Source: Planctomycetota bacterium (GTDB lineage: Bacteria > Planctomycetota > B15-G4 > JADJEK01). From it: DNA of 64,000 nucleotides. The stretch is taken from the NCBI GenBank assembly GCA_044225365.1, contig JBGAIQ010000019.1, positions 1-64,000 on the forward strand. The letters are read 5' to 3'. The notes below the pieces were generated by a model. It made no database searches and was not told the origin of the DNA. It worked only from the letters and a program-made list of their open reading frames with translations. Made by a program: the position numbers and the translations under genes. Of this stretch, positions 37,514-51,304 are shown piece by piece; the first letter of the stretch is position 1; every line of letters starts with the position of its first letter.

Positions 37514-39589
37514 ATGACGACGACGATCACGAGAGACCGGCTGCGACGAAAGGCGTCCCCGGCTCTGCTGTTCCTCTTCACTCTTGCGAGCGCCGCGACG
37601 GCCGAGGATCGCCATCCACTCACGATCCACGACATGCTCGCGATGCAGCGCGTGGGGGACGTCGCCGTGTCGGCGGGCGGCACCAAACTCGCGTTCACCG
37701 TGCGCACGACGGACGTCGCCGCGAACACGGGTCGCTACGACGTGTGGCTCGTCGATGCGAAGGAGGGCGGTCCGCGTCGCCTCACGTCGAACGTCGCGAA
37801 CGACACGTCCCCGCGTTTCTCGCGCGACGATCTCTCGATCTACTTCCTCTCGTCCCGCAGCGGGTCCTCGCAGATCTGGTCGCTGTCCCTCATGGGCGGC
37901 GAGCCGACGCAGATCACGGACCTGCCGCTCGACATCGACAACTTCCTCGTCTTCCCCGATGGCCGTCGATTCCTCGTCTCCATGGAGGTGTATCCCGACG
38001 CCAAGGACCTCGCCGAGACCGCGGCGCGCGATGAAGCGAAGGCGAAGTCCAAGATGAAGGCGAAGGTCTACGACTCGCTCCTGTTCCGCCATTGGGATCA
38101 GTGGGAGGACGGCAAGCGCAGCCATTGGTTCACGCTCGACGCCGTGACGGGGAAAGCGACCGACCTGATGGCGGGCATGCCTTGCGACGCTCCGAACAAA
38201 CCGTTCGGCGGTGCGGAAGAAGCGACGATCCGGAACGACGGCAAGACGGTCGTGTTCGCGACGACGAACATGGGTCGCGAGGCGGCGTGGTCGACGAACG
38301 TCGATCTCTACAGCGTTCCTTCCGACGGATCCGCGGCGCCGACCTGCCTCACCACCGACAACCCGGCGACCGACAATCTCCCGCAATTCTCACCCGACGG
38401 ACGTTTCCTCGCGTACGTCGCGATGAAGCGGCCCATGTACGAATCGGATCGTCAGGGGCTCATGATCCGCGAGGTCGAGAGCGGAAAGGTCCGTGAGATC
38501 GCGCCCAACTGGGATCGTTCCGCGAGCGGCTTCACGTGGAGCCGCGACGGAAAGACGCTCTACGCGACCGCCGATCACATCGGCAACACCGGCCTGTTCG
38601 CCGTCGACGTCGGAAGCGGCACGGTGAAGCCGCTCATCGAGAAGGGCGCCGCGGGCGGCCCGGTCGCGATCGAGGGCGGAGTTGCGTTCCTCTGGAACGA
38701 CATGAAGCACCCCGATGAGATCCACACGCTCGACGCCGCGGGGAATCGAAAGGTCCTGACCGCGATCAACGCACCGCTGCTCGAGAAGATCGCCTTTGGC
38801 GACTACGAGCAGTACTCGTTCAAGGGCGCGCACGACGACACGGTCTACGGCTACGTGATGAAGCCGTGGAACTACGAGAGCGGCAAGAAGTACCCCGTCG
38901 CGTTCTTGATCCACGGCGGCCCGCAGGGCTCGTTCTCGGATCACTTCCACTATCGTTGGAACGCCGAAGCGTTCGCGGGCCGCGGACTCGGCGTCGTGTT
39001 CGTCGACTTCCATGGGTCGACGGGATACGGCCAGGCCTTCTGCGACTCGATCCGCGGCGATTGGGGCGGCGCACCGTACGAGGACTTGATGAAGGGCCTC
39101 GACGCCGCGCTCGCGAAGTACTCGTTCCTCGATGGCTCGCGCGTCGCGGCGGCGGGCGCGAGCTACGGCGGTTACATGATCAACTGGATCGCGGGCCAGA
39201 CGGATCGCTTCAAGTGCCTCGTCTGCCACGACGGCAATCTCGACAACCGAATGGCCTACCTCGACACCGAGGAACTCTGGTTCGACGAATGGGAGCACCA
39301 CGGCACGCCGTGGGAGAATCCCGACGCGTTCAGCAAGCACAACCCGATCGACTTCATCAAGAACTGGAAGACTCCGACGCTCGTCCTGCACGGCGGCAAC
39401 GACTTCCGCGTCGTCGATACGCACGGCATGGCGACGTTCACGGCGCTGCAGCGCAAAGGGATTCCGTCGAAGTTCGTGTTCTTCCCGGACGAGAATCACT
39501 GGGTGCTGAAGCCGCAGAATTCGATCCTCTGGCACGACAGCGTGCTCGACTGGATCGATCAGTGGACCAAGTCGCCGCCCGCCAAGTGA
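37514..39589 (+). CDS. S9 family peptidase (dipeptidyl-peptidase V-like)
   Basis: Signal peptide, beta-propeller, IHGGPQG, GASYGG, DFRV, ENHWVLKPQN. Confidence 0.93.
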   Translation: MTTTITRDRLRRKASPALLFLFTLASAATAEDRHPLTIHDMLAMQRVGDVAVSAGGTKLAFTVRTTDVAANTGRYDVWLVDAKEGGPRRLTSNVANDTSPRFSRDDLSIYFLSSRSGSSQIWSLSLMGGEPTQITDLPLDIDNFLVFPDGRRFLVSMEVYPDAKDLAETAARDEAKAKSKMKAKVYDSLLFRHWDQWEDGKRSHWFTLDAVTGKATDLMAGMPCDAPNKPFGGAEEATIRNDGKTVVFATTNMGREAAWSTNVDLYSVPSDGSAAPTCLTTDNPATDNLPQFSPDGRFLAYVAMKRPMYESDRQGLMIREVESGKVREIAPNWDRSASGFTWSRDGKTLYATADHIGNTGLFAVDVGSGTVKPLIEKGAAGGPVAIEGGVAFLWNDMKHPDEIHTLDAAGNRKVLTAINAPLLEKIAFGDYEQYSFKGAHDDTVYGYVMKPWNYESGKKYPVAFLIHGGPQGSFSDHFHYRWNAEAFAGRGLGVVFVDFHGSTGYGQAFCDSIRGDWGGAPYEDLMKGLDAALAKYSFLDGSRVAAAGASYGGYMINWIAGQTDRFKCLVCHDGNLDNRMAYLDTEELWFDEWEHHGTPWENPDAFSKHNPIDFIKNWKTPTLVLHGGNDFRVVDTHGMATFTALQRKGIPSKFVFFPDENHWVLKPQNSILWHDSVLDWIDQWTKSPPAK

Positions 39590-40254
39590 CGGCGGATCCA
39601 GAAGCGCTTCAGTGTGCGGGGGCTGTCCTTCGGGAGTTCGCCGCGTCCATGCACGATCCGCGTGTTGTCGACGTAGAGGCTCTGGCCCGGCTCGAGTCGC
39701 ACGTCGATCCGCGGCGAGGATTCGATCGCGTCGGAGAATCTCCGAAAGGTCTCGCGAACCGCCGGGTCTTCGATCGGAGCGACGTTCCAAGCGGCGTAGT
39801 AGACCCGCGGCCCTCCGCTGTCACGCGAGAGCAGCGGGACGAGCGTCGCGTCGAGGCGGCCGTCGACGTCCGGGCAACGCATCGTGATCTGGCCGAGACG
39901 ATCGCGATCGTCGTCGCTCAGTGAGTCGAGGATCGGCCTGCTGTCGACGAGGCGCGTCGCGCCCCCGATCTCCGCCGCGCGGACGCAATACCACGCGATC
40001 CGATCGACGTAGTGCTGATCCGTATGCAGTCCGAGTTCGCGCGGCGAATGCGCGCCGCGCGGACTGTTGCCGAGCTTGATGTCCTCGATTCGCAGGACGC
40101 TACCCAGGCATCTCCCGAGGTGGTAGAACGACCCGACGCGAATCGGTTGCTCGAGCACGTGGAAGCCGCGAGATTCCAGATCCCGCTCGATCATGGCGAC
40201 CGCTGCGGCGCCATCGAACGGGACTTCGCGAGGAGTGTCGGTCGATGCGGACAT
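39559..40254 (-). CDS. TauD/TfdA family Fe(II)/2-oxoglutarate dioxygenase
   Basis: LHTD facial-triad motif, C...A..GG.T.LVD, DN.RI.HGR, R.L.R; start could extend to 40311. Confidence 0.82.
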   Translation of the reverse strand: MSASTDTPREVPFDGAAAVAMIERDLESRGFHVLEQPIRVGSFYHLGRCLGSVLRIEDIKLGNSPRGAHSPRELGLHTDQHYVDRIAWYCVRAAEIGGATRLVDSRPILDSLSDDDRDRLGQITMRCPDVDGRLDATLVPLLSRDSGGPRVYYAAWNVAPIEDPAVRETFRRFSDAIESSPRIDVRLEPGQSLYVDNTRIVHGRGELPKDSPRTLKRFWIRRHLAGGDLVH

Positions 40255-40345
40255 CACGATGTCGTATCCTCTCGGAATCTTCTCGCTTTCGTCGGCGACT
40301 CGGAGCGGCATTCGACATGACCAACGAACGGGGCAGCGAGCGCAA

Positions 40346-40852
40346 ATGAGCTACTCCACTCCATACCACGAACACGGCGTTCCCATCGACTCCGAGTTCT
40401 GTCGCGGCTCGAACACGGCGCGCAAGGCGCGACACGTTCTCGAGGATTCGCGCAGATTGCTGGGTTGCGACGAGGCCGCTCTCTGGGTGTTCAGCAAGGA
40501 CAACCAGAATCTCGTCGCCGCGCTGAATCACGGCAAGCACGAGAAGAGCGTCGAGGGACTCGAGGTCCAGATCCGCGGTTCGCTCGTCGGGCTCGTCGCA
40601 ATGACGGGCGAGGGCATCTGCGTAGGGCCCGATGCGAACTACAACCCGGAGGTCGCCCGCGCCCTCGACGTCAAGACGTACGCGATGGTCGCCGCCGCCG
40701 TCGTGGTCGACGACGAGATCTGTGGCGTGATCTCCGCGGTCAACCTGTACGGGACGACGGAGTCGATCTTCACCGTCGAGCACCTGCGTGCGGTGCAATG
40801 GGCGGCGTACGTCATGGGTCTCGTGCTCTCGGATTGCAAGAAGCGTGATTGA
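40346..40852 (+). CDS. Stand-alone GAF domain protein
   Basis: GSLVGLVAMTGEGI...MVAAAV......GVISAVN.....FT.EHL GAF pattern; stop overlaps the S8 gene start. Confidence 0.8.
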   Translation: MSYSTPYHEHGVPIDSEFCRGSNTARKARHVLEDSRRLLGCDEAALWVFSKDNQNLVAALNHGKHEKSVEGLEVQIRGSLVGLVAMTGEGICVGPDANYNPEVARALDVKTYAMVAAAVVVDDEICGVISAVNLYGTTESIFTVEHLRAVQWAAYVMGLVLSDCKKRD

Positions 40853-41636
40853 CGCGCCGCTCACCGACGACGAATTGACCGCCGCGACCGGCGAGGGAAT
40901 TCGGGTGCTCGTGATGGACTCCGGAATCGAGTCCGATCACCCGACGCTCGTCGGCCGCGAGATCCCGAACTTCGAGGTCCTGCCGTTCCCGATCGGCGCC
41001 GACGTCACGTATCGAGTCCAATCGGCGCCCGGCGGCGATGCGTTCGGGCACGGAACCGCCGTCGCTTCCCTGCTCGTCGCGCATGCGCCAGGCGTGAAGA
41101 TCGAGAGCTTGCGGATGCTCGACGCCGATCGTCAGGGCAGTTCCGAGCGCGTCCTCGCCGGGCTGCGCTGGGCGATCGAGCGGCGCTTCGACATCGTGAA
41201 CTGCAGCTTCGGCACCTTCGGTCCGTCGACGACCAAGTTCCTCGCCTCCTACAAACGAGTCGTCGACATCGCATTCTGTGAGAACGTGCTGCTCATCGGC
41301 GCGTGCTCGAACTCGGACCATCGACTGACGTCGCTCCCGGCCTCGTTCCCGACCGTGCTCTCGACCGATGCCGGACGGATCGAGGATTCGCCGCTGCCGA
41401 AGGTGAAGCGACGCAAGGGACAACTCGTCGAGTTCGTGACGCGCGGCGTCGACGTCTCGGTGTCCTGGAAGGATGGCAGTTCGCGCCTCGTAACGGGTAG
41501 CAGCTTCGCTGCCCCGCACCTCGCGGCGCTCGTCGCCCGCATCCGACAATTGCGACCGCATTGGAATGCTTGCGAGATGAAGGCGGAGTTGTACCGTCGA
41601 TCCGAGCCCGTCACGGCCGCGGACGACGCCGACTGA
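40845..41636 (+). CDS. Small S8 subtilisin-like serine protease (no signal or propeptide)
   Basis: Catalytic triad motifs VMDSGI, GHGTAVA, TGSSFAAPH. Confidence 0.88.
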   Translation: MIDAPLTDDELTAATGEGIRVLVMDSGIESDHPTLVGREIPNFEVLPFPIGADVTYRVQSAPGGDAFGHGTAVASLLVAHAPGVKIESLRMLDADRQGSSERVLAGLRWAIERRFDIVNCSFGTFGPSTTKFLASYKRVVDIAFCENVLLIGACSNSDHRLTSLPASFPTVLSTDAGRIEDSPLPKVKRRKGQLVEFVTRGVDVSVSWKDGSSRLVTGSSFAAPHLAALVARIRQLRPHWNACEMKAELYRRSEPVTAADDAD

Positions 41637-41711
41637 GGTCGCTGCGCGTGATGATCGAATTCGTTTCGATCGCGATTCAGGACCGATGGGGCGGGCAGGA
41701 GCGACCTCGAA

Positions 41712-42383
41712 GTGAGTGAAGCCGACGAATCGAAGAAGCCATCTCCATCGCTCGTACGCGCTCGCGGCGAGCCCTCGCTCGCAGAGTCCGCGCGCGAGTG
41801 GGATGCGTTCTTCACGAGCGGCAGGTATCGCGAGGAATGGCACCTCGATCAGGCGTCCCCCGAACTCATGTGCCTGCTCGCAGCGGGGATCGTCGTGCCG
41901 CCAGGGCGCGCGCTCGACCTGGGTTGTGGAGGTGGCACGGAGGCCGTGCATCTCGCGCAACAGGGTTTCACGGTGACGGCCCTCGACGTTTCGGGCGAGG
42001 CACTTGCGATGACTCGGCGGCTCGCGGCGCGGCGCGGCGTCAAGCTTGCAACGCTTCAGGCCTTCGTGCCGAGAACCGAGCTCCCCGACCAGTCCTTCGA
42101 CTTCATCAATGATCGCAGCTGCTTCCACGCCATCGAGCCGAGGCTCGAGGTGCTCACCGCCTACGCCGCGGAGATCCAGCGCATCCTGGTTCCGGGCGGC
42201 GTCCTGTTCATTCGCAGGTTCGGTCAGCCGCAGATCTCCCTCTCGACGTTCTCGTCCGTATTCTCAGAAGAAGCCGGATTCGATCTCGGGCGCGTTCAAG
42301 AGGTCCCCTTCCACGAACCTCATTTTCCCTCGCGAGTCGCCGTGATCCGGTGGCGGGGGAAGAGTGCGTCGCGAGCATCATGA
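41712..42383 (+). CDS. Class I SAM-dependent methyltransferase (TPMT/thiol-MT-like)
   Basis: W....SPEL, GRALDLGCGGG.EA..LA..GF.VTALDVS, FD.I.DRSCFH. Confidence 0.88.
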   Translation: MSEADESKKPSPSLVRARGEPSLAESAREWDAFFTSGRYREEWHLDQASPELMCLLAAGIVVPPGRALDLGCGGGTEAVHLAQQGFTVTALDVSGEALAMTRRLAARRGVKLATLQAFVPRTELPDQSFDFINDRSCFHAIEPRLEVLTAYAAEIQRILVPGGVLFIRRFGQPQISLSTFSSVFSEEAGFDLGRVQEVPFHEPHFPSRVAVIRWRGKSASRAS

Positions 42384-42396
42384 TGGAGGCAGTCGC

Positions 42397-43578
42397 ATGA
42401 GCATCGTCCTCGACCGTCGATCGTCGTCGCAGCCGCAATCGAACGATCCGCGAACCCTCCTTCCGCTCGAGGTGTTCTTCCAGAACATCCGCTACGTGAC
42501 GCTCAAGCTGACGAACGGCTGCAATCTGAAGTGCTCGTACTGCAACGTCGAGGCCGATTCGCCCACCACGCCGAAGATGAAGATCGAGACCTTCAAGAAG
42601 GTCGCGAAGCTCCTCATCGAGAACTCGAAGTTCCCGCAACTCGGACTCGAATTTCACGGCGGCGAGCCGATGCTCCTCCCCGATGCGTGGTACGAAGAAG
42701 CGGTCGGTTACGCGGGAGAACTCGCGAAGAAGCACGGCAAGTTCATTACGCATCCGCTGCAGACGAACGGCACGTTGCTCACGGAGGAACGCGCGAACAA
42801 GCTGATGTCGCTCGGAATCCAGATCGGCTTCTCGATCGACGGTCCGCCCGACATCAATGACAAGATGCGCGGCGCCGGCAAAGCCGTCGAGAAGGTGATT
42901 CGACGCATGAAGTCGCAGGGCCGCGGCTTCGGCTGCCTGCTCGTCCTGAACCGCTCGAACTGCAATCACATGTACCGGGTGATGGACTATTTCCGGGAGA
43001 TCGGGATCGAGAACTACCGGATCAACTTCCTGCAGCCGCAGGGTCGTGGCTTGACGCAGGATCTCCTGACGGCGGAGGAGATGTTCGCGGGTCTCAAGGG
43101 CATCTTCGATCACATGCTCGACACGAATTGCTCGGTGCTCGAGTCGACGACGCAGACGATGGTCCAGCGGTTCGCGATCGGTCGCAATCCGCAGCCGGCG
43201 CTCTCCTGCTGGGAATTCCAGTGTCAGGCCGGCCGCGTCTATTGCGCAATGAACGATCGCGGCGAACTCCACGCCTGCGGCACGGACATGCAGCACCATC
43301 GACTCGGTGACATCGACACGCCACTGAACCGCCCGCACGTGGAGGCGGTGCTGAAGAAGCTTCACCACAAGGACGAGTGGTACGTGCGCTGCTTCGACTG
43401 CAAGGCGCGGCGCATCTGTTCGATGTCGTGCCCGACGAGCGACCACAACGATCTCTTGTATCGCGAACGCGAGTGCGCGTACACCAAGATGATCTACCGC
43501 TACTACGCGGAGAACGAAGACAAGGTGCTGCAGCTCCATGCCCGGCTGCAGCAACTCCGCCCGAATGGGGCGATGTAA
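42397..43578 (+). CDS. Radical SAM/SPASM peptide maturase
   Basis: CNLKCSYC, FHGGEP, QTNG, SIDGP; SPASM Cys array C..C...C...CFDCx5Cx3Cx14C; RBS GGAGG. Confidence 0.93.
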   Translation: MSIVLDRRSSSQPQSNDPRTLLPLEVFFQNIRYVTLKLTNGCNLKCSYCNVEADSPTTPKMKIETFKKVAKLLIENSKFPQLGLEFHGGEPMLLPDAWYEEAVGYAGELAKKHGKFITHPLQTNGTLLTEERANKLMSLGIQIGFSIDGPPDINDKMRGAGKAVEKVIRRMKSQGRGFGCLLVLNRSNCNHMYRVMDYFREIGIENYRINFLQPQGRGLTQDLLTAEEMFAGLKGIFDHMLDTNCSVLESTTQTMVQRFAIGRNPQPALSCWEFQCQAGRVYCAMNDRGELHACGTDMQHHRLGDIDTPLNRPHVEAVLKKLHHKDEWYVRCFDCKARRICSMSCPTSDHNDLLYRERECAYTKMIYRYYAENEDKVLQLHARLQQLRPNGAM

Positions 43579-43641
43579 GCGCGGAATTCCGCGCCTACGA
43601 TGCGAGGGCAGAGGTACTACGTCCCAAAAAGGAGTTTGAAC

Positions 43642-44088
43642 ATGGCTATCGTCCGCAGTGAGGACGGCCGTTTCTTCGACGTCGACGACACGGAACTCGA
43701 CAAGCATGAGATCAAGCCGGAAGACCTCCCGACCGGATCGGTCTACGCCCGCCCGCAAGGTGGGCCCGGGATGGGCGGTCCCGGCGCCGGTGGACCCGGG
43801 ATGGGCGGCCCGCGCGGCGGCGGCGGTGGTCCGGTGCAACTCGTCATCAATCTCGGCGGCGGCGGTGGAATGGGCGGCGGTGCGCCGCAGATGGGCTCCG
43901 GCCCGCAGGCGTCGGGTCCGGTTCAGCGCGGTCAGGGCGGGCAACAGGCCGGCGCGCGCGGTGATGTCCAGGCTCACAATTGGTGCGGCATGCCGTGGCC
44001 GTGGGGCAACTGGCACAACTGGCACAATTGGAACAACTGGAACAACTGGATGAACTGCTGGAACAACTGCTGGCACAACTGCAGCTGA
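43642..44088 (+). CDS. RiPP precursor peptide with Trp/Asn/Cys-rich repetitive core
   Basis: Strong RBS AAGGAG; acidic leader, Gly/Pro linker, then DVQAH-NWCGMPWPWGNWHNWHNWNNWNNWMNCWNNCWHNCS; lies between the rSAM and DUF692 genes. Confidence 0.88.
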   Translation: MAIVRSEDGRFFDVDDTELDKHEIKPEDLPTGSVYARPQGGPGMGGPGAGGPGMGGPRGGGGGPVQLVINLGGGGGMGGGAPQMGSGPQASGPVQRGQGGQQAGARGDVQAHNWCGMPWPWGNWHNWHNWNNWNNWMNCWNNCWHNCS

Positions 44089-44096
44089 GATCCAGC

Positions 44097-44134
44097 GCGG
44101 GGTGCGCCCGGTCGAGCGACCGCGCGCACCCCGC
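44097..44134 (+). terminator. GC-rich stem-loop immediately after the precursor gene
   Basis: GCGGGGTGCGC-c-CGGTC gagc GACCG-c-GCGCACCCCGC; no U-tract. Confidence 0.65.
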
Positions 44135-44185
44135 TCACCTCGAATCCCTCGTCCGTCCAAATCGCCCGGCGCCGAAGAGGTCCTC

Positions 44186-44575
44186 ATGACTCGGGTCTAC
44201 TCTCTCGATGGTCGCGTCTTCGAACTCGACGAATCGATGCTCGCCAAGTCGCAGATGGCGGCCGAAAAGGTGAGTCGCCTGATCGACAAGGACACGTTGC
44301 CCGAGCCGCCGCCGGTCGGCGACTTCCCGCAACAGGGCATTCCGCCGCACATCCAGCAGATGCTCGCGCAAGGGGTCGAACTGCCGATCCCCGAGGAAGC
44401 GCGTCACCTGGTGCGTGCGCGCAGCTTCATGGACGGAACGATCGTCATCGACATCGACGTTCGAGCGCTTCCCGGTTCGTCGGCGTGCGGGGGTCCCGCC
44501 TGTGGGCCCGCTCCGCGCGATCCCGCGGGGCAAACGCGGCCGGGCGAATGCGACTCCGGGGCCCGTCCGGCATGA
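44186..44575 (+). CDS. Precursor-like protein sharing the leader motif
   Basis: RVYSLDGRVFELDESMLAK aligns with precursor IVRSEDGRFFDVDDTELDK; RBS GAGG; stop overlaps MNIO start (ATGA). Confidence 0.75.
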   Translation: MTRVYSLDGRVFELDESMLAKSQMAAEKVSRLIDKDTLPEPPPVGDFPQQGIPPHIQQMLAQGVELPIPEEARHLVRARSFMDGTIVIDIDVRALPGSSACGGPACGPAPRDPAGQTRPGECDSGARPA

Positions 44576-45711
44576 GGCCACGGCTTCCGGCGTACGGAGT
44601 GGGCATCGGCTACCGATACTGCATCCATCGCGAGATCTTGCGCTGCGCGCCGATGATCGATTTCCTCGAAGTCCCGTCGGAGGATTACGTCGAGGACGAT
44701 CGGCGAGCGCGATTCGATCCCGACGAATCCCTGCTGCGCGCCGCGGTCGAACGCTTCCCGTGCGTCGCGCACGGCACGGGTCTCTCGCTCGGCACTGCCG
44801 CGCCGCCGGATGAGAACTATCTGCAGCGGCTCGCGAACTTCGCCGAACGGACGCCGATCGGCGAGTATTCCGAGCACCTGTCGTTCATCCGCGGGATCGA
44901 TCACGAGGTCGATGCGTTCATGGCGCTCCCGTTCACCGACCTCGGCGTCGCGATCGCCGCCGAGAACGTGATGCGTTCCGCTCGAGCTCTCGGCGTCCCC
45001 TTCCTCGTCGAGAACGTGAGCTACTACTTCGCGCTGCCGGAGTCGACGTACAGTGAGGCCGAGTTCATCTCGCGGGTCGCGCAGGCTGCTGATTGCGGCA
45101 TCCTGCTGGATGTCGCGAACCTCCACATCAACGCCACGAATCACCATTACGACCCCGAGGCCTTCATCCGCGCCTTGCCGAAGGAGCGCGTGCTCCATTC
45201 GCATTTCTGCGGCGCGAGCCGAGGTCCGGATCGGTTCCTCTACGACACGCACTTCGAAGTGACGATGCCCGCCGTCTGGCGCATCCTCGATACGGCGTTG
45301 CGGGAGACGGCGCTGCGTGCGCTCGTGTTCGAACGCGATCAGCGGTTCGTTCCGTTCCAGGAGCCGATGGAAGAGATCTTCCAGGCGCGCGAGTTGTTCC
45401 GCCGGCATCGCAAGACCAAGCCATTGCTGCCCGTCACGACGCACTCGCCGGCTCCCGCGGGTGGCGACGATGCGGTCTACTCTCGGGAGTTGCGAAAGCT
45501 CCAGGACGTGCTGTGCCGGTTGTTGACCGACGAGGATCTCGGGCGCGCGGTCGAGCGCGAGGGTGAAACCGCGCTCGTCCACACCGGGATCGACCGCGAT
45601 TCGCGGCGCATCCTCGCCGCGATTCCGGGCGTCGCGCGCGAGCGCATCGGCCGGCGGCTGCGCGAGCGGCTGCGAAAGGGTGGGCGCTCCAACGTGGAAT
45701 CGTTGCCATGA
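44572..45711 (+). CDS. DUF692 family multinuclear non-heme iron oxidative enzyme (MNIO) with C-terminal extension
   Basis: GVGIGYR, DFLEV, HG.GLSLG, SEHLSF, LVENVSYY, LLDVANL.IN..NH, H, DTH, ERD. Confidence 0.92.
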   Translation: MRPRLPAYGVGIGYRYCIHREILRCAPMIDFLEVPSEDYVEDDRRARFDPDESLLRAAVERFPCVAHGTGLSLGTAAPPDENYLQRLANFAERTPIGEYSEHLSFIRGIDHEVDAFMALPFTDLGVAIAAENVMRSARALGVPFLVENVSYYFALPESTYSEAEFISRVAQAADCGILLDVANLHINATNHHYDPEAFIRALPKERVLHSHFCGASRGPDRFLYDTHFEVTMPAVWRILDTALRETALRALVFERDQRFVPFQEPMEEIFQARELFRRHRKTKPLLPVTTHSPAPAGGDDAVYSRELRKLQDVLCRLLTDEDLGRAVEREGETALVHTGIDRDSRRILAAIPGVARERIGRRLRERLRKGGRSNVESLP

Positions 45712-47600
45712 CCGAATCGAGAGATCCGGGGCCGCCGCCGGGCATGAAGGACGCGGGACCTCCGAAGGGAGTTGCGGATAGTGGTCCGCCGCCGGGGATG
45801 AAGGACGAACCCCCGGCCGATGGCGGTCCACCGCCCGGGATGATCGACGCCCCGCCGAAGCTGGATCGGGAGACGATCGCGTTCTTCGTACCCTACGTGC
45901 GAAAGCAGCGCGGACGTCTCCTCGCGATCCTCGGCATGCTCCTGTTCTCCGCGCTGATGCCGGTCGCGATGAGCTTCCTGCCGACGAAGCTCGCTCAGAA
46001 TTGGCATCCGGGCGGCGAACACGAAGTCATGAAGTGGCTCGTGGCATTCCTGGCGCTCTCGGTCGTCGCGCTCACGCTCGCGCCCGTCCAGGGTTATCTG
46101 ACGGCGCGCGTCGCGCAGGACCTCGCGTGTGATCTGAAGGGCGCGATCTTCCGCAAGGTCGGCGCGATGTCGAAGACCGCGATGGCGTTCCGGTCGGTCG
46201 GATCGCTCGCGCATCGCAGCTCCGGCGATGTCGCTCATCTCCAGGAGTTCCTCGCCCGCTTCGTGCCCGATGCCGTCGCGAACGTGATCCAGCTCGTGTT
46301 CGTCGTCCTCGCGATGCTCTGGCTGCAGCCGGTCATCGCGATCGTCGGGCTCGTCCTCGTTCCGACGATCTGGTTCATCATGGACCGCTTCAACGCGAAG
46401 GTTCGACTGCTCGCACGCAGTTCGCAGAAACAGAGCGAGTCGTCGCTCACGCGGCTGATCGAGGGCGTCGCGGGGTACATCGATCTCGTCGCCGCCGGAC
46501 GCTTCCCCAAGGCCGCGGACGAATACGTGAGCGTGCTCGACGATCTGCGGCGCACGGCGATCAAGATGACGCTGACGAGTTCGATCGCCGCGCTCATTCC
46601 GAGCATCGCGTTCATGGCGATCACGAACGGCTACTACTTCGTCGCCGCGGCCGACGAGAAAATGCTCGCCGCGACGACGGTCGGATTCGGCCAGGTGATG
46701 ACCTTCGTTTCGCTGATCAACGTCGTGCGCATGCCGATCATGACGCTCGCTCGGTTCTTCACCGAGACCGCGATCGCCGCTCCGAGCTTCCACGAAGTGA
46801 AGAAGCTCCTCGAGTCGCCCGAGGTGTCCGCGCCGACGCACGGCGTGAAGATCGACGGCAGCGCGATCGAGTTCAAGGGCGTGGTATTCAGTTACGGCCC
46901 AGGCTTCCCGCCCGTGCTCGATGGCGTCTCGTTCCGGATTCCCGAAGGGAGCTTCACAGCGATCGTCGGCGAGACCGGGTCCGGCAAGACGACGCTCTTC
47001 CACATGCTGCTGCGGCTCCTCGAGCCGACGAGCGGAGAGATCCGCCTCGGCAACTCGACGCTCGGCGCGATCGCCCTCGAGGATTTGCGGTCGTACGTCG
47101 GATTCATTCCGCAGTCGCCTTTCCTGTTCGATGCGACGATTCGTGAGAACGTCGCGATCGCGCTCGCCGAGAACGAAGTCGATCAGGAGCGATTGCTGCG
47201 GGCCGTGAAGCTCGCGCGGCTGGAGCCCGTCGTCGAGAAGCGCAAATCCCAGGGCGGACTCGATGCCAAGGTCGGCGCCGCCGGCGCGAGTCTCTCGGGC
47301 GGAGAACGGCAGCGCGTCGCGCTCGCGCGCGTCTTCCTGCGCGATCCCAAGATCATCGTCTGCGACGAATACACGGCGAACATCGACAACGCGACGGCGC
47401 GGATCATCCAGGAGTCGATCGCACGCGAATTCGCCGGGCGCACGCGCGTCGTCATCACGCATCAGCTCTACACGATCCGCGGGGCGGATCAGATCCTGGT
47501 GCTCGACCGCGGGCGAATCGTCGATCGGGGCACGCACGAGGAACTCGTCGCGCGCGGCGGGCTGTATCGTGAGATGTGGGAAGTCCAGCGGCTCGCGTGA
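45708..47600 (+). CDS. ABC exporter (fused TMD-NBD)
   Basis: TM domain, Walker A GETGSGKT, LSGGERQR, Walker B IIVCDE, H-loop; no C39 domain; start overlaps MNIO stop. Confidence 0.93.
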   Translation: MTESRDPGPPPGMKDAGPPKGVADSGPPPGMKDEPPADGGPPPGMIDAPPKLDRETIAFFVPYVRKQRGRLLAILGMLLFSALMPVAMSFLPTKLAQNWHPGGEHEVMKWLVAFLALSVVALTLAPVQGYLTARVAQDLACDLKGAIFRKVGAMSKTAMAFRSVGSLAHRSSGDVAHLQEFLARFVPDAVANVIQLVFVVLAMLWLQPVIAIVGLVLVPTIWFIMDRFNAKVRLLARSSQKQSESSLTRLIEGVAGYIDLVAAGRFPKAADEYVSVLDDLRRTAIKMTLTSSIAALIPSIAFMAITNGYYFVAAADEKMLAATTVGFGQVMTFVSLINVVRMPIMTLARFFTETAIAAPSFHEVKKLLESPEVSAPTHGVKIDGSAIEFKGVVFSYGPGFPPVLDGVSFRIPEGSFTAIVGETGSGKTTLFHMLLRLLEPTSGEIRLGNSTLGAIALEDLRSYVGFIPQSPFLFDATIRENVAIALAENEVDQERLLRAVKLARLEPVVEKRKSQGGLDAKVGAAGASLSGGERQRVALARVFLRDPKIIVCDEYTANIDNATARIIQESIAREFAGRTRVVITHQLYTIRGADQILVLDRGRIVDRGTHEELVARGGLYREMWEVQRLA

Positions 47601-47648
47601 GCCGTCGTCGGATACTCCCCGCTTCGCTCTCGTTCCCGGAATCCTCCC

Positions 47649-48698
47649 GTGACCTCGCAATCGGTCCACGGCCGCGGCGCGGCCGACAATCCCGACAACC
47701 GATTCGTCCGCCTCACGGTCGAGCCCGATCCGGAGTGCAGCCAAGAAGAGCGGGCGATCGTCACCGAGTACTTCGTCGATGCCTCGAAGACGATCCTGTC
47801 GCGCAACGACAGCCCCGACATCGGATTCGAGTTCAGCGTCAACCCTTATCGGGGCTGCGAGCACGGATGCATCTACTGCTACGCGCGGCCGACGCACGAA
47901 TACCTCGGCCTCTCCGCGGGGCTCGAGTTCGAGAGCAAGATCTTCGTGAAGGAGAAGGCGCCCGAACTCCTGCGCGCGGAACTGATGAACGAGAGGTGGC
48001 GGCCGCAGGCGATCAACTTCTCGGGTGTGACCGATTGTTATCAACCGCTCGAGCGACGGCTGCGCCTCACGCGGCGCTGTCTCGAAGTGCTGATCGAGTT
48101 CAAGAACCCGGCGGCCGTCATCACCAAGAGCGCGCTGATCGAGCGCGACATCGACGTGCTGGCCGAACTCGCGGCGATCGGCGGAGCGCTCGTGGGCATC
48201 ACGATCACGACGCTCGATGAGTCGCTCGCTTCCAAGCTCGAGCCGCGCGCCGCTTCCCCGCGGCGGCGAATCGGCGCGATCGCAGCACTGGCAAACGCGG
48301 GCGTCCCGGTGCACGTGATGACGGCGCCGATCGTGCCCGGGCTCACCGATCACGAGATCCCGGCGATCCTGAAGGCCGCTGCAGAAGCCGGTGCGCGGTC
48401 AGCGGGATGGACTCTTCTGCGGCTCCCGCACGCCGTGAACCCGTTGTTCGAGGACTGGCTCACGCGGTACGCGCCGGGTCAGAAGGAGAAGGTGCTGCGA
48501 CGCATCGAGGACGCGCGCGGCGGCGAGCGGCACGACTCCAGATTCCATGTTCGGATGCGCGGTGAAGGACGCATCGCCGAGGAAGTTGCCGACATGTTCG
48601 CCTTCGCGCGCGACCGCGCGGGCCTCGCGCCGGATGCTCCGAAACTGTCCGCGACGCACTTTCGTCGACCTGGCCCGCAACAGGGCAAGCTCTTCTGA
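47649..48698 (+). CDS. PA0069/Rv2578c family radical SAM protein (SplB-like, DNA repair-associated)
   Basis: GRGA..NP.NRF, SVNPYRGCEHGCIYCYARPTHEYLG, TDCYQPLE; ends QGKLF. Confidence 0.9.
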   Translation: MTSQSVHGRGAADNPDNRFVRLTVEPDPECSQEERAIVTEYFVDASKTILSRNDSPDIGFEFSVNPYRGCEHGCIYCYARPTHEYLGLSAGLEFESKIFVKEKAPELLRAELMNERWRPQAINFSGVTDCYQPLERRLRLTRRCLEVLIEFKNPAAVITKSALIERDIDVLAELAAIGGALVGITITTLDESLASKLEPRAASPRRRIGAIAALANAGVPVHVMTAPIVPGLTDHEIPAILKAAAEAGARSAGWTLLRLPHAVNPLFEDWLTRYAPGQKEKVLRRIEDARGGERHDSRFHVRMRGEGRIAEEVADMFAFARDRAGLAPDAPKLSATHFRRPGPQQGKLF

Positions 48699-48777
48699 TG
48701 GACCGCCAAGCTCCAGCTTGGCTCCTCTCTTCTCTTCCGATGGACCGCCAAGCTCCAGCTTGGCTCCTCTCTTCTCT
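48697..48777. repeat. Tandem pair of GGAC-type REP palindromes (42-bp period)
   Basis: Two copies of GATGGACC-GCCAAGCTCCAGCTTGGC-TCCTCTCTTCTCT between convergent genes. Confidence 0.8.
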
Positions 48778-48801
48778 GAGAGCCCATCGCTCCCACGCTG
48801 C

Positions 48802-49176
48802 TCAGCCCGCCGCTGCCGCCCCCGCAGCCCCGGCGGCCCCGGCACCTGCCGCCGCCTGGTCGCTCGCCTCCTGAGCCGCGAGGATCGCGAGCAGTTCGCT
48901 CCGGTTCGACCCTATGGCGCTCGTGACGTACACGATCCCGCTTCCGAGTCCGGGAAGATCGTTCGTCCAGAGGATCGCGCCGTTCTCTGGGTCGAGCGCG
49001 AAGGCGCGGCCACCCGCCGCGCAGAACACGAGCCCGTCTTCGTAGAGGATCGAGACGACGCCGTAGCCGGTGCTCGGCAGGGAGGTCTGCCAGATGGTCC
49101 TACCGCTCGCCTTCTCGATTGCGGCCACATGACCGTAGGTGCCGAGGAAGAGGAGTTTGTGCGCAGCGATCGTCAT
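48802..49176 (-). CDS. Small PQQ-binding-like beta-propeller repeat protein
   Basis: V.AIEKASG..IW...L and FALDPENG.ILW.N.L.GLG repeats; Ala-rich tail. Confidence 0.75.
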   Translation of the reverse strand: MTIAAHKLLFLGTYGHVAAIEKASGRTIWQTSLPSTGYGVVSILYEDGLVFCAAGGRAFALDPENGAILWTNDLPGLGSGIVYVTSAIGSNRSELLAILAAQEASDQAAAGAGAAGAAGAAAAG

Positions 49177-51078: not shown

Positions 51079-51082
51079 TGCG

Positions 51083-51298
51083 GGAGCGCCGGGCTCTGCC
51101 CGGCAATGGGGCGGCGATGCGGAGGAAAGAAGATGCCAGGCTGGAGCCTGGCGGTCCGCCTGGCGGTCCGAATTTGGAGCGCCGGGCTCTGCCCGGCAAT
51201 GGGGCGGCGATGCGGAGGAAAGAAGATGCCAGGCTGGAGCCTGGCGCTCCGCCTGGCGGTCCACCTGGCGGTCCACCGGGCGCTCCGCCTGGTGGTCC
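51083..51298. repeat. REP doublet array (93-bp period) with 12-bp tail repeats
   Basis: Two copies of GGAGC-GCCGGGCTCTGCCCGGC...GCCAGGCTGGAGCCTGGC, then CCTGGCGGTCC-like repeats; between convergent genes. Confidence 0.8.
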
Positions 51299-51304
51299 GG
51301 CCGC

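Follow-up and report, generated by a model that had tools for sequence, protein, structure and literature searches.

What a gene encoding a precursor leader without a core contributes to RiPP maturation is the question raised by ORF2, the second of two leader-bearing genes in a cluster of a Planctomycetota bacterium (GTDB lineage B15-G4; JADJEK01). The window, i.e. the whole stretch of DNA analysed, comprises 64,000 nucleotides of contig JBGAIQ010000019.1 (assembly GCA_044225365.1). A preliminary description, made from the letters alone, had considered ORF2 either a second precursor dedicated to the adjacent MNIO or a leader mimic or chaperone acting in trans. The cluster is a same-strand run of GAF, S8 peptidase, methyltransferase, radical SAM/SPASM, precursor, ORF2, MNIO and ABC exporter genes. 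Its features, together with a neighbor on the opposite strand, are as follows.

39559..40311, minus strand: TauD-family dioxygenase, with homologs in clusters L007, L008, L014 and G840
40193..40852, plus strand: GAF-domain protein, with homologs beside the S8 peptidase in L003, L006, L015 and G271
40788..41636, plus strand: S8 peptidase, QhpE-like but below cut-off, with a homolog in most related clusters
41712..42383, plus strand: SAM methyltransferase, without a close match in the related loci compared
42397..43578, plus strand: radical SAM/SPASM maturase, without an N-terminal extension of RRE size; alternative GTG start at 42364
43642..44088, plus strand: RiPP precursor of 148 aa, with leader, Gly/Pro linker including a VQLVINL strand, DVQAH, and a core with 8 W-x-N and 4 Cys
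44097..44133, plus strand: GC-rich stem-loop without U-tract in the spacer between precursor and ORF2 (z -3.9; not called as a terminator)
44186..44575, plus strand: ORF2, coreless leader paralog of 129 aa with ATG start, assigned by sequence comparison; no Pfam or NCBIfam family
44572..45711, plus strand: MNIO (PF05114) with a C-terminal extension of ~105 aa that has no Pfam match
45708..47600, plus strand: ABC exporter with a Pro/Gly-rich N-terminus and no match to the C39 peptidase domain

The maturase matches PF04055 and carries CxxxCxxC near the N-terminus and 8 invariant C-terminal Cys; no gene for an RRE was noticed in the cluster around it. The S8 peptidase is likely the leader peptidase, and the stem-loop is likely an mRNA stabiliser or attenuator. 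A GAF gene directly precedes the S8 peptidase gene in the window (40193-41636), L003, L006, L015 and L062. The ABC exporters of the window (45708-45860), L003, L004, L005, L006, L015 and L061 begin with an additional 50-100 aa of low complexity in which a GPPPG-type unit is repeated.

ORF2 is a real gene under coding constraint, since 22 of the 29 differences listed against a related strain (run X4) fall on codon position 3, five on position 1 and two on position 2 (p 3e-6; one contig, covering ORF2 and the MNIO start). AGAGG stands 5 bases upstream of its ATG. The preliminary description was accurate on the composition of the gene: ORF2 contains neither Trp nor W-x-N and thus no Trp/Asn core, its three Cys (C101, C106, C122) lie in a Pro/Gly tail, and its stop overlaps the MNIO start in an ATGA at 44572. 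The leader module of the W-x-N precursors, MAIxRSxDGxFxxVxDxxL, is present, while the V-x-x-Y/H/R junction and the W-x-N core of a precursor are both missing. Four parts of the protein are distinguished.

44186..44290, plus strand: leader-like module, residues 1-35, with a predicted beta-hairpin (2-5, 11-14) and predicted helices (16-22, 26-34); M1, D8, G9 and L19 invariant in 29 rows
44291..44314, plus strand: residues 36-43 with the DxLPxAPP motif, which is confined to the coreless family; L38 97%, P39 93%, P42 90% (29 rows)
44411..44455, plus strand: second predicted beta-hairpin, residues 76-90, VRAR..GTIVIDI, with PFVRV..IINV in other members; the last strand resembles VQLVINL of the precursor
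44483..44572, plus strand: Pro/Gly tail with C101, C106 and C122 (xCG), modelled with low confidence and present in one sub-lineage only (7 of 35 members)

An AlphaFold2 model on 29 rows has two separate beta-hairpins (2-14 and 76-90) and the two helices (mean pLDDT 75, pTM 0.31); in an earlier model the tail lay below pLDDT 50. With a pTM of 0.31, local structural elements are predicted but no compact domain, and a wide fold search with this low-pTM model gave an uninformative best Z of 2.1 (rmsd 7.7, 43 aligned). Searches of Pfam, NCBIfam and PDB sequences returned no family name for ORF2 or for the precursors; there was no PqqD-like RRE or DUF2063 match among Pfam and NCBIfam profiles, and Pfam held nothing relevant for 29 members. 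A match of VTSLDG to designed propeller repeats in the PDB was short and was judged to be due to chance.

The N-termini of ORF2 and the precursor are identical at 10 of 24 positions without gaps, and the Smith-Waterman score of 49 is equalled by 68 of 10,000 shuffles. This pairwise similarity is modest, and it is the profiles that make homology firm. An HMM built solely from 19 leaders of cored precursors placed ORF2 second among 94,250 stop-to-stop ORFs of the genome (E 0.024), the precursor being first. When family alignments of coreless and cored proteins were compared by hhalign, the match reached 98.3% (E 1.9e-14) over columns 1-35 only. By this profile evidence the first 35 residues of ORF2 are homologous to the precursor leader. 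The shared leader motif claimed in the preliminary description is therefore real, and the N-terminal similarity is significant in the profile comparison that it had proposed as a check. Its second parallel, between GTIVIDI and VQLVINL, fared less well: GTIVIDI is the best ORF2 window for a PSSM of the precursor strand, but p is 0.056 (p<0.05 for 9 of 27 family members), and the pairing is absent from the hhalign alignment. It is plausible, and weaker than the leader match.

In all, 35 coreless proteins, ORF2 among them, form a family without a name. The first searches yielded P0003 and P0004, and a five-sequence profile added 7 further coreless members. The profile scan of 1.84 billion representatives (50% identity clustering) gave 30 matches, namely 26 coreless proteins, 3 cored precursors and 1 precursor-type leader that ends early; P0048 and the G271 gene bring the total to 35. 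The consensus is M-x-x-V-x-S-L-D-G-x-x-Y/F-x-L/I-D-E-x-x-L-x-x-x-R-I-x-D-E-x-V-x-x-L, followed by LPxAPP, then a Pro-rich linker that varies between members and, at the end, a hairpin (V76, I88) that is missing from seven short members (P0030, 32, 34, 35, 39, 40, 42). A single branch of a tree of the 36-column N-terminus parts coreless from cored leaders (SH-aLRT 92), which is consistent with a single origin of the family, probably by one duplication of a precursor gene and loss of the core. Because the extensions in front of the N-termini of P0034 and P0041 resemble a precursor core in other frames, and P0027 reads on into an ABC transporter gene, these proteins hint at the same gene order as in the clusters described below.

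The W-x-N system is rare and patchy. The radical SAM protein was found in none of 60 genomes of relatives and in 2 of 400 of the same phylum. The coreless profile matched none of 400 other genomes in the phylum of L006, none of 19 others in the order of G271, none of 400 others in the class of L005 and none of 41 others in the class of the window genome. Plasmids gave no match, and the matches in viral contigs were limited to distant radical SAM proteins (19-39% identity). In the literature searched, neither the coreless family nor a natural coreless leader paralog is described, although subscription surveys, including large ones on triceptides, and bioRxiv supplements may list the precursors; the supplements of PMC12452194 and PMC10288494 contained zero matches to the motifs searched.

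Radical SAM homologs of 44-61% identity led to 18 loci, to which G271 was added. The preliminary description had made its proposal dependent on the presence of the gene in homologous clusters, and a gene of the ORF2 type indeed occurs in L006 (Verrucomicrobiales), L015 and G271. Together with the window these form one radical SAM subgroup, in which the coreless gene follows the last precursor gene in 4 of 4 clusters; these four are the only carriers with genomic context among the 35 members. The G271 cluster is split over two contigs, and the coreless gene at the start of the second had been predicted beforehand from the radical SAM group. The four carrier maturases make up one side of a branch (72/98) of the radical SAM tree, and 1 of 500 shuffles was as low; the branch is unstarred (72 bootstrap), with long-branch outgroups attaching next to it. 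Locus scans did not find the coreless family in 10 of 10 other clusters with context (L002, L003, L004, L005, L007, L008, L009+L148, L010, L014, L017). Whole-genome scans for seven of these ten non-carriers gave only cored precursors, except for an unrelated truncated leader in G839. The counts omit L020-L048, whose radical SAM proteins are distant and unrelated, and L011, L012, L013, L016, L018 and L019, which are too short to judge; L013 has no coreless ORF between precursor and ABC genes. Genes for an ECF-sigma-like protein and a probable anti-sigma factor, read from translations, lie just upstream of the radical SAM gene in two carrier clusters (L015:5388-6657, L051:2173-3295).

These distributions bear on one rival reading of ORF2, a precursor duplicate that has lost its function and is decaying. 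Precursor genes are frequently duplicated (2-4 copies in L006, L007, L008, L014 and L015), and G839 holds a separate truncated leader copy. Against decay stand the third-position bias, the invariant motifs of the family that are absent from precursors, the 26 coreless representatives at 50% identity clustering and a position of the gene that is shared across more than one phylum. The decayed-duplicate reading is close to refuted and is considered highly improbable. The leader in G839 (L145:3980-4228, minus strand; G839:C276) is of another type, with neither LPxAPP nor a second hairpin and with an acidic Pro/Gly tail that ends in a Cys-containing stretch. It lies ~700 bases upstream of an orphan cored precursor, away from the radical SAM cluster, and is a possible second, independent core loss.

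The proposal of a second precursor dedicated to the MNIO is largely unsupported. The Cys-Gly tail occurs in 7 of the 35 members, all in the ORF2 sub-lineage; the close relative P0022 is without it. A conserved Cys motif was found within the sub-lineage and not across the family. L006 carries the coreless gene, and its genome (G061; completeness not given) has no PF05114 match, while seven MNIO clusters have no coreless gene; obligate linkage of the two genes was thus not found. The ATGA overlap was rejected as a sign of dedication to the MNIO, because in G271 the stop of the coreless gene overlaps the ABC transporter start in the same manner. Among 13 clusters, which are kin and not independent and include L005 with its MNIO gene in two pieces, 3 have both MNIO and coreless gene, 6 only the MNIO, 1 only the coreless gene and 3 neither (Fisher p 1.0). 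The same counts for MNIO and Cys in the precursor core are 9, 0, 1 and 3 (p 0.014), and a fourteenth cluster, G840, fits with an MNIO, Cys cores and no coreless gene between precursor and MNIO. Since the presence of the MNIO tracks core Cys and not the coreless gene, the MNIO likely acts on precursor Cys. In L005 the first ORF of the divided MNIO gene (L005:12086-13095) has 229 aa, and the ABC gene also aligns in two pieces. Precursor cores rich in His (WHNHH repeats, poly-His) occur in L002, L003, L004, L011 and L017 and their products may bind metal; in L002, L004 and L017 the core has no Cys and no MNIO was found.

A narrower form of the MNIO proposal concerns the sub-lineage of ORF2, where the protein would additionally serve as a second substrate: the MNIO would oxidise the xCG Cys of its tail, comparable to the action of HvfB and BufB on the Cys motifs of their precursors. 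This side role is judged unlikely. It is kept under consideration because xCG recurs in seven proteins, at 44-93% identity, and because Cys motifs are the usual targets of MNIOs according to the accessible part of PMC12452194, which also gives precursor before MNIO as the usual order. The overlap of ORF2 with the MNIO gene is kept on the related contig, the best MNIO models are HvfB and BufB (both below cut-off), and the unrelated coreless leader of G839 also ends in Cys. On the other side, 28 of the 35 members are without the tail, among them those of the MNIO clusters L015 and G271, and the cluster counts and G840 speak for the precursor as substrate; the window precursor has its own WCG and three NC motifs.

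The reading preferred here is that ORF2 acts in trans as a leader mimic that is not consumed and docks on the maturation machinery, most likely on the RRE-less radical SAM enzyme, rather than being an MNIO substrate; the chances of this are put at about even. That ORF2 is a partner of the machinery and acts in trans is suggested by three observations: the helix pattern, the placement behind the stem-loop and the maturase without RRE-sized extension. In the helix region of the leader, precursors of carrier clusters have IKPEDLP where the others have IPADQVKE, and the coreless family keeps the latter pattern. Comparison of the first 31 residues gives 27 coreless N-termini a mean score of 55 against 16 non-carrier precursors and of 45 against 13 carrier-type precursors. 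For L015 and G271 the difference is strong; ORF2 itself shows none (43.0 vs 42.6; 47 against its own precursor). Stem-loops lie upstream of the coreless gene in 3 of 3 readable carriers (window, as given above; L006, z -6.7; L015, z -2.4); since hairpins of this sort also come after some precursors of other clusters (L007, z -2.8), the stem-loop is a feature of the clusters. The radical SAM enzyme as target is a guess from co-occurrence, and radical SAM, ABC, S8 and GAF genes co-occur equally. Ten related clusters manage without the coreless gene, which counts against the leader-mimic reading, as do the small number of carriers with context, the low pTM of the model and the seven short members without the second hairpin. 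The mimic or chaperone in trans of the preliminary description thus agrees with the conservation, as the family is coreless throughout, keeps the hairpin and helix of the leader, has a C-terminal hairpin of its own and holds a fixed place after the precursors; the binding and activation that it implied are predictions.

A more specific version, for which the case is tentative, is that ORF2 is a natural stand-alone leader, the precursor having split into a substrate and a coreless sister that would have retained the ancestral recognition helix and become the obligatory trans subunit switching on the RRE-less radical SAM cyclophane synthase. In the preferred reading as such, a precursor gene would have been duplicated once and the core lost in one copy. 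The coreless paralog would have kept the 'IPDExVxxL' helix and gained LPxAPP and a partner strand, while the precursors of the same clusters replaced the helix with 'IKPEDLP'. ORF2 follows the stem-loop, and its gene is coupled to the enzyme or transporter gene after it, so the amount produced likely matches that of the enzymes and not that of the precursor. It would then supply the leader helix that the cognate precursors have lost and hold the leader-binding site active or stable, in the manner of engineered leader fusions. The W-x-N core would be cross-linked, its Cys oxidised where an MNIO is present, and the product cleaved by the S8 peptidase and exported.

The partner of ORF2 could instead be the precursor. 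The leader hairpins might pair, or ORF2 might donate its second hairpin to the VQLVINL strand. ORF2 would then serve as chaperone or carrier, either maintaining the Trp/Asn-repeat core in solution or passing it to the ABC exporter. The hairpin module is common to both proteins, the precursor has a lone hydrophobic strand where ORF2 has a two-stranded hairpin, and in L006, L015 and G271 the ABC gene comes after the coreless gene. A partner of this kind is nevertheless rather doubtful, as the place behind the stem-loop suggests fewer copies of ORF2 than of precursor, in L015 a single coreless gene accompanies three precursor genes, and equally repetitive cores occur in related clusters without such a gene. 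ORF2 might also be a decoy or brake: by occupying the leader-binding site of the radical SAM enzyme or of the S8 peptidase in competition with the precursor, it would time maturation or limit it. The same pattern of conservation would be expected, the recognition module being kept while the junction of DVQAH/EVQPY type and the core are missing. Because ORF2 sits in the same operon, is coupled to the enzymes and has no obvious control of its own (a search of 39500-48800, a weak test, gave no promoter-like site), this role is regarded as quite improbable.

Among known systems, the leader-mimic reading has its closest parallel in engineered proteins. Several RiPP enzymes are known to become active when a leader binds, which is the basis of engineered leader-enzyme fusions. 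In the accessible text of PMC10604976, a leader without a core occupies and activates the enzyme for leaderless cores, either fused to ThurKC or added in trans, and leader fusions of LctM and of a cyanobactin YcaO are cited there. ORF2 likewise is a coreless leader, but those leaders are engineered, whereas here a natural, separate gene family with added conserved motifs is concerned, for which activation is a prediction. A helper role for the tag only was found in the searched literature for engineered leaders alone; the natural coreless family appears new, with a proposed function. Small accessory proteins thought to link RiPP precursor and enzyme are named in the accessible parts of PMC10858898 and PMC12452194 (PqqD-like RRE, lasso B1, DUF2063/TglI/BufC). 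ORF2 is also a small accessory protein, but it differs from stand-alone RREs and MNIO partners in being a homolog of the precursor leader, in having no Pfam match and in not tracking the MNIO. The leader of proteusins (NHLP) is described, in the part of PMC10858898 seen, as a structured N-terminal portion, a Pro-rich joint and an unstructured recognition stretch; the long structured layout is similar here, but it is built of a short hairpin and helices and matches neither the NHLP nor the Nif11 model.

The pathway as a whole resembles that of triceptides, RiPPs with three-residue cyclophanes made from aromatic-X-X motifs by radical SAM/SPASM enzymes (maturases GrrM/OscB, YhhB, AmcB and HtkB), according to the accessible text of PMC11499958. 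In the window a radical SAM/SPASM gene likewise lies beside a precursor with 8 W-x-N, and W-x-N recurs in related cores, so that the cluster likely works like a triceptide pathway, with a predicted cross-link. In contrast, the maturase remains far below the named cut-offs (best PapB, 115 of 340 bits; GrrM/OscB, 68 of 310) and is not a member of GrrM/OscB, YhhB or AmcB, and clusters of the window type add an S8 peptidase, a GAF protein, an optional MNIO and the coreless paralog. No relevant NCBIfam model was found for 30 precursors, and the leader matches none. The poly-W-x-N RiPP family of Planctomycetota, Verrucomicrobiota and Hyphomicrobiales appears to be undescribed in the libraries and literature searched. 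For the MNIO, the bufferin and oxazolin enzymes BufB and HvfB are the closest models (189 of 310 and 194 of 360), and Cys-directed chemistry is likely; unlike those systems, the window cluster shows no DUF2063 partner encoded by a gene of its own, and the MNIO has its own C-terminal extension.

If the leader-mimic reading is correct, evolution has sub-functionalised a precursor duplicate in parallel to the leader-enzyme fusions of engineers, and substrate recognition by RRE-less radical SAM maturases becomes open to a direct test. As related clusters exist both with and without the coreless gene, a ready-made comparison is at hand. Genome-mining tools would overlook ORF2 or list it as a precursor, and carrier clusters expressed in another host might fail in its absence.

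C-terminal extensions of the MNIO of ~105-140 aa are shared by the window (45397-45708), L003, L007, L008, L010, L014, L015, L061 and L148; five were compared with Pfam and gave no meaningful match, and the extension is possibly a fused partner-like domain. A second, unrelated MNIO of 30% identity is encoded elsewhere in the same genome (G000:C77:9824-10597). In a distant twin radical SAM cluster, L052 (G134:C321), the leader is short and of another kind, and the core consists of Y-x-N / W-x-N repeats that come after a Trp-Cys-Cys stretch; an ABC transporter gene follows. Short repeated intergenic units, with repeated peptide text in several frames, lie at 48700-48850 and 51080-51300 of the window and are probably REP-like elements.
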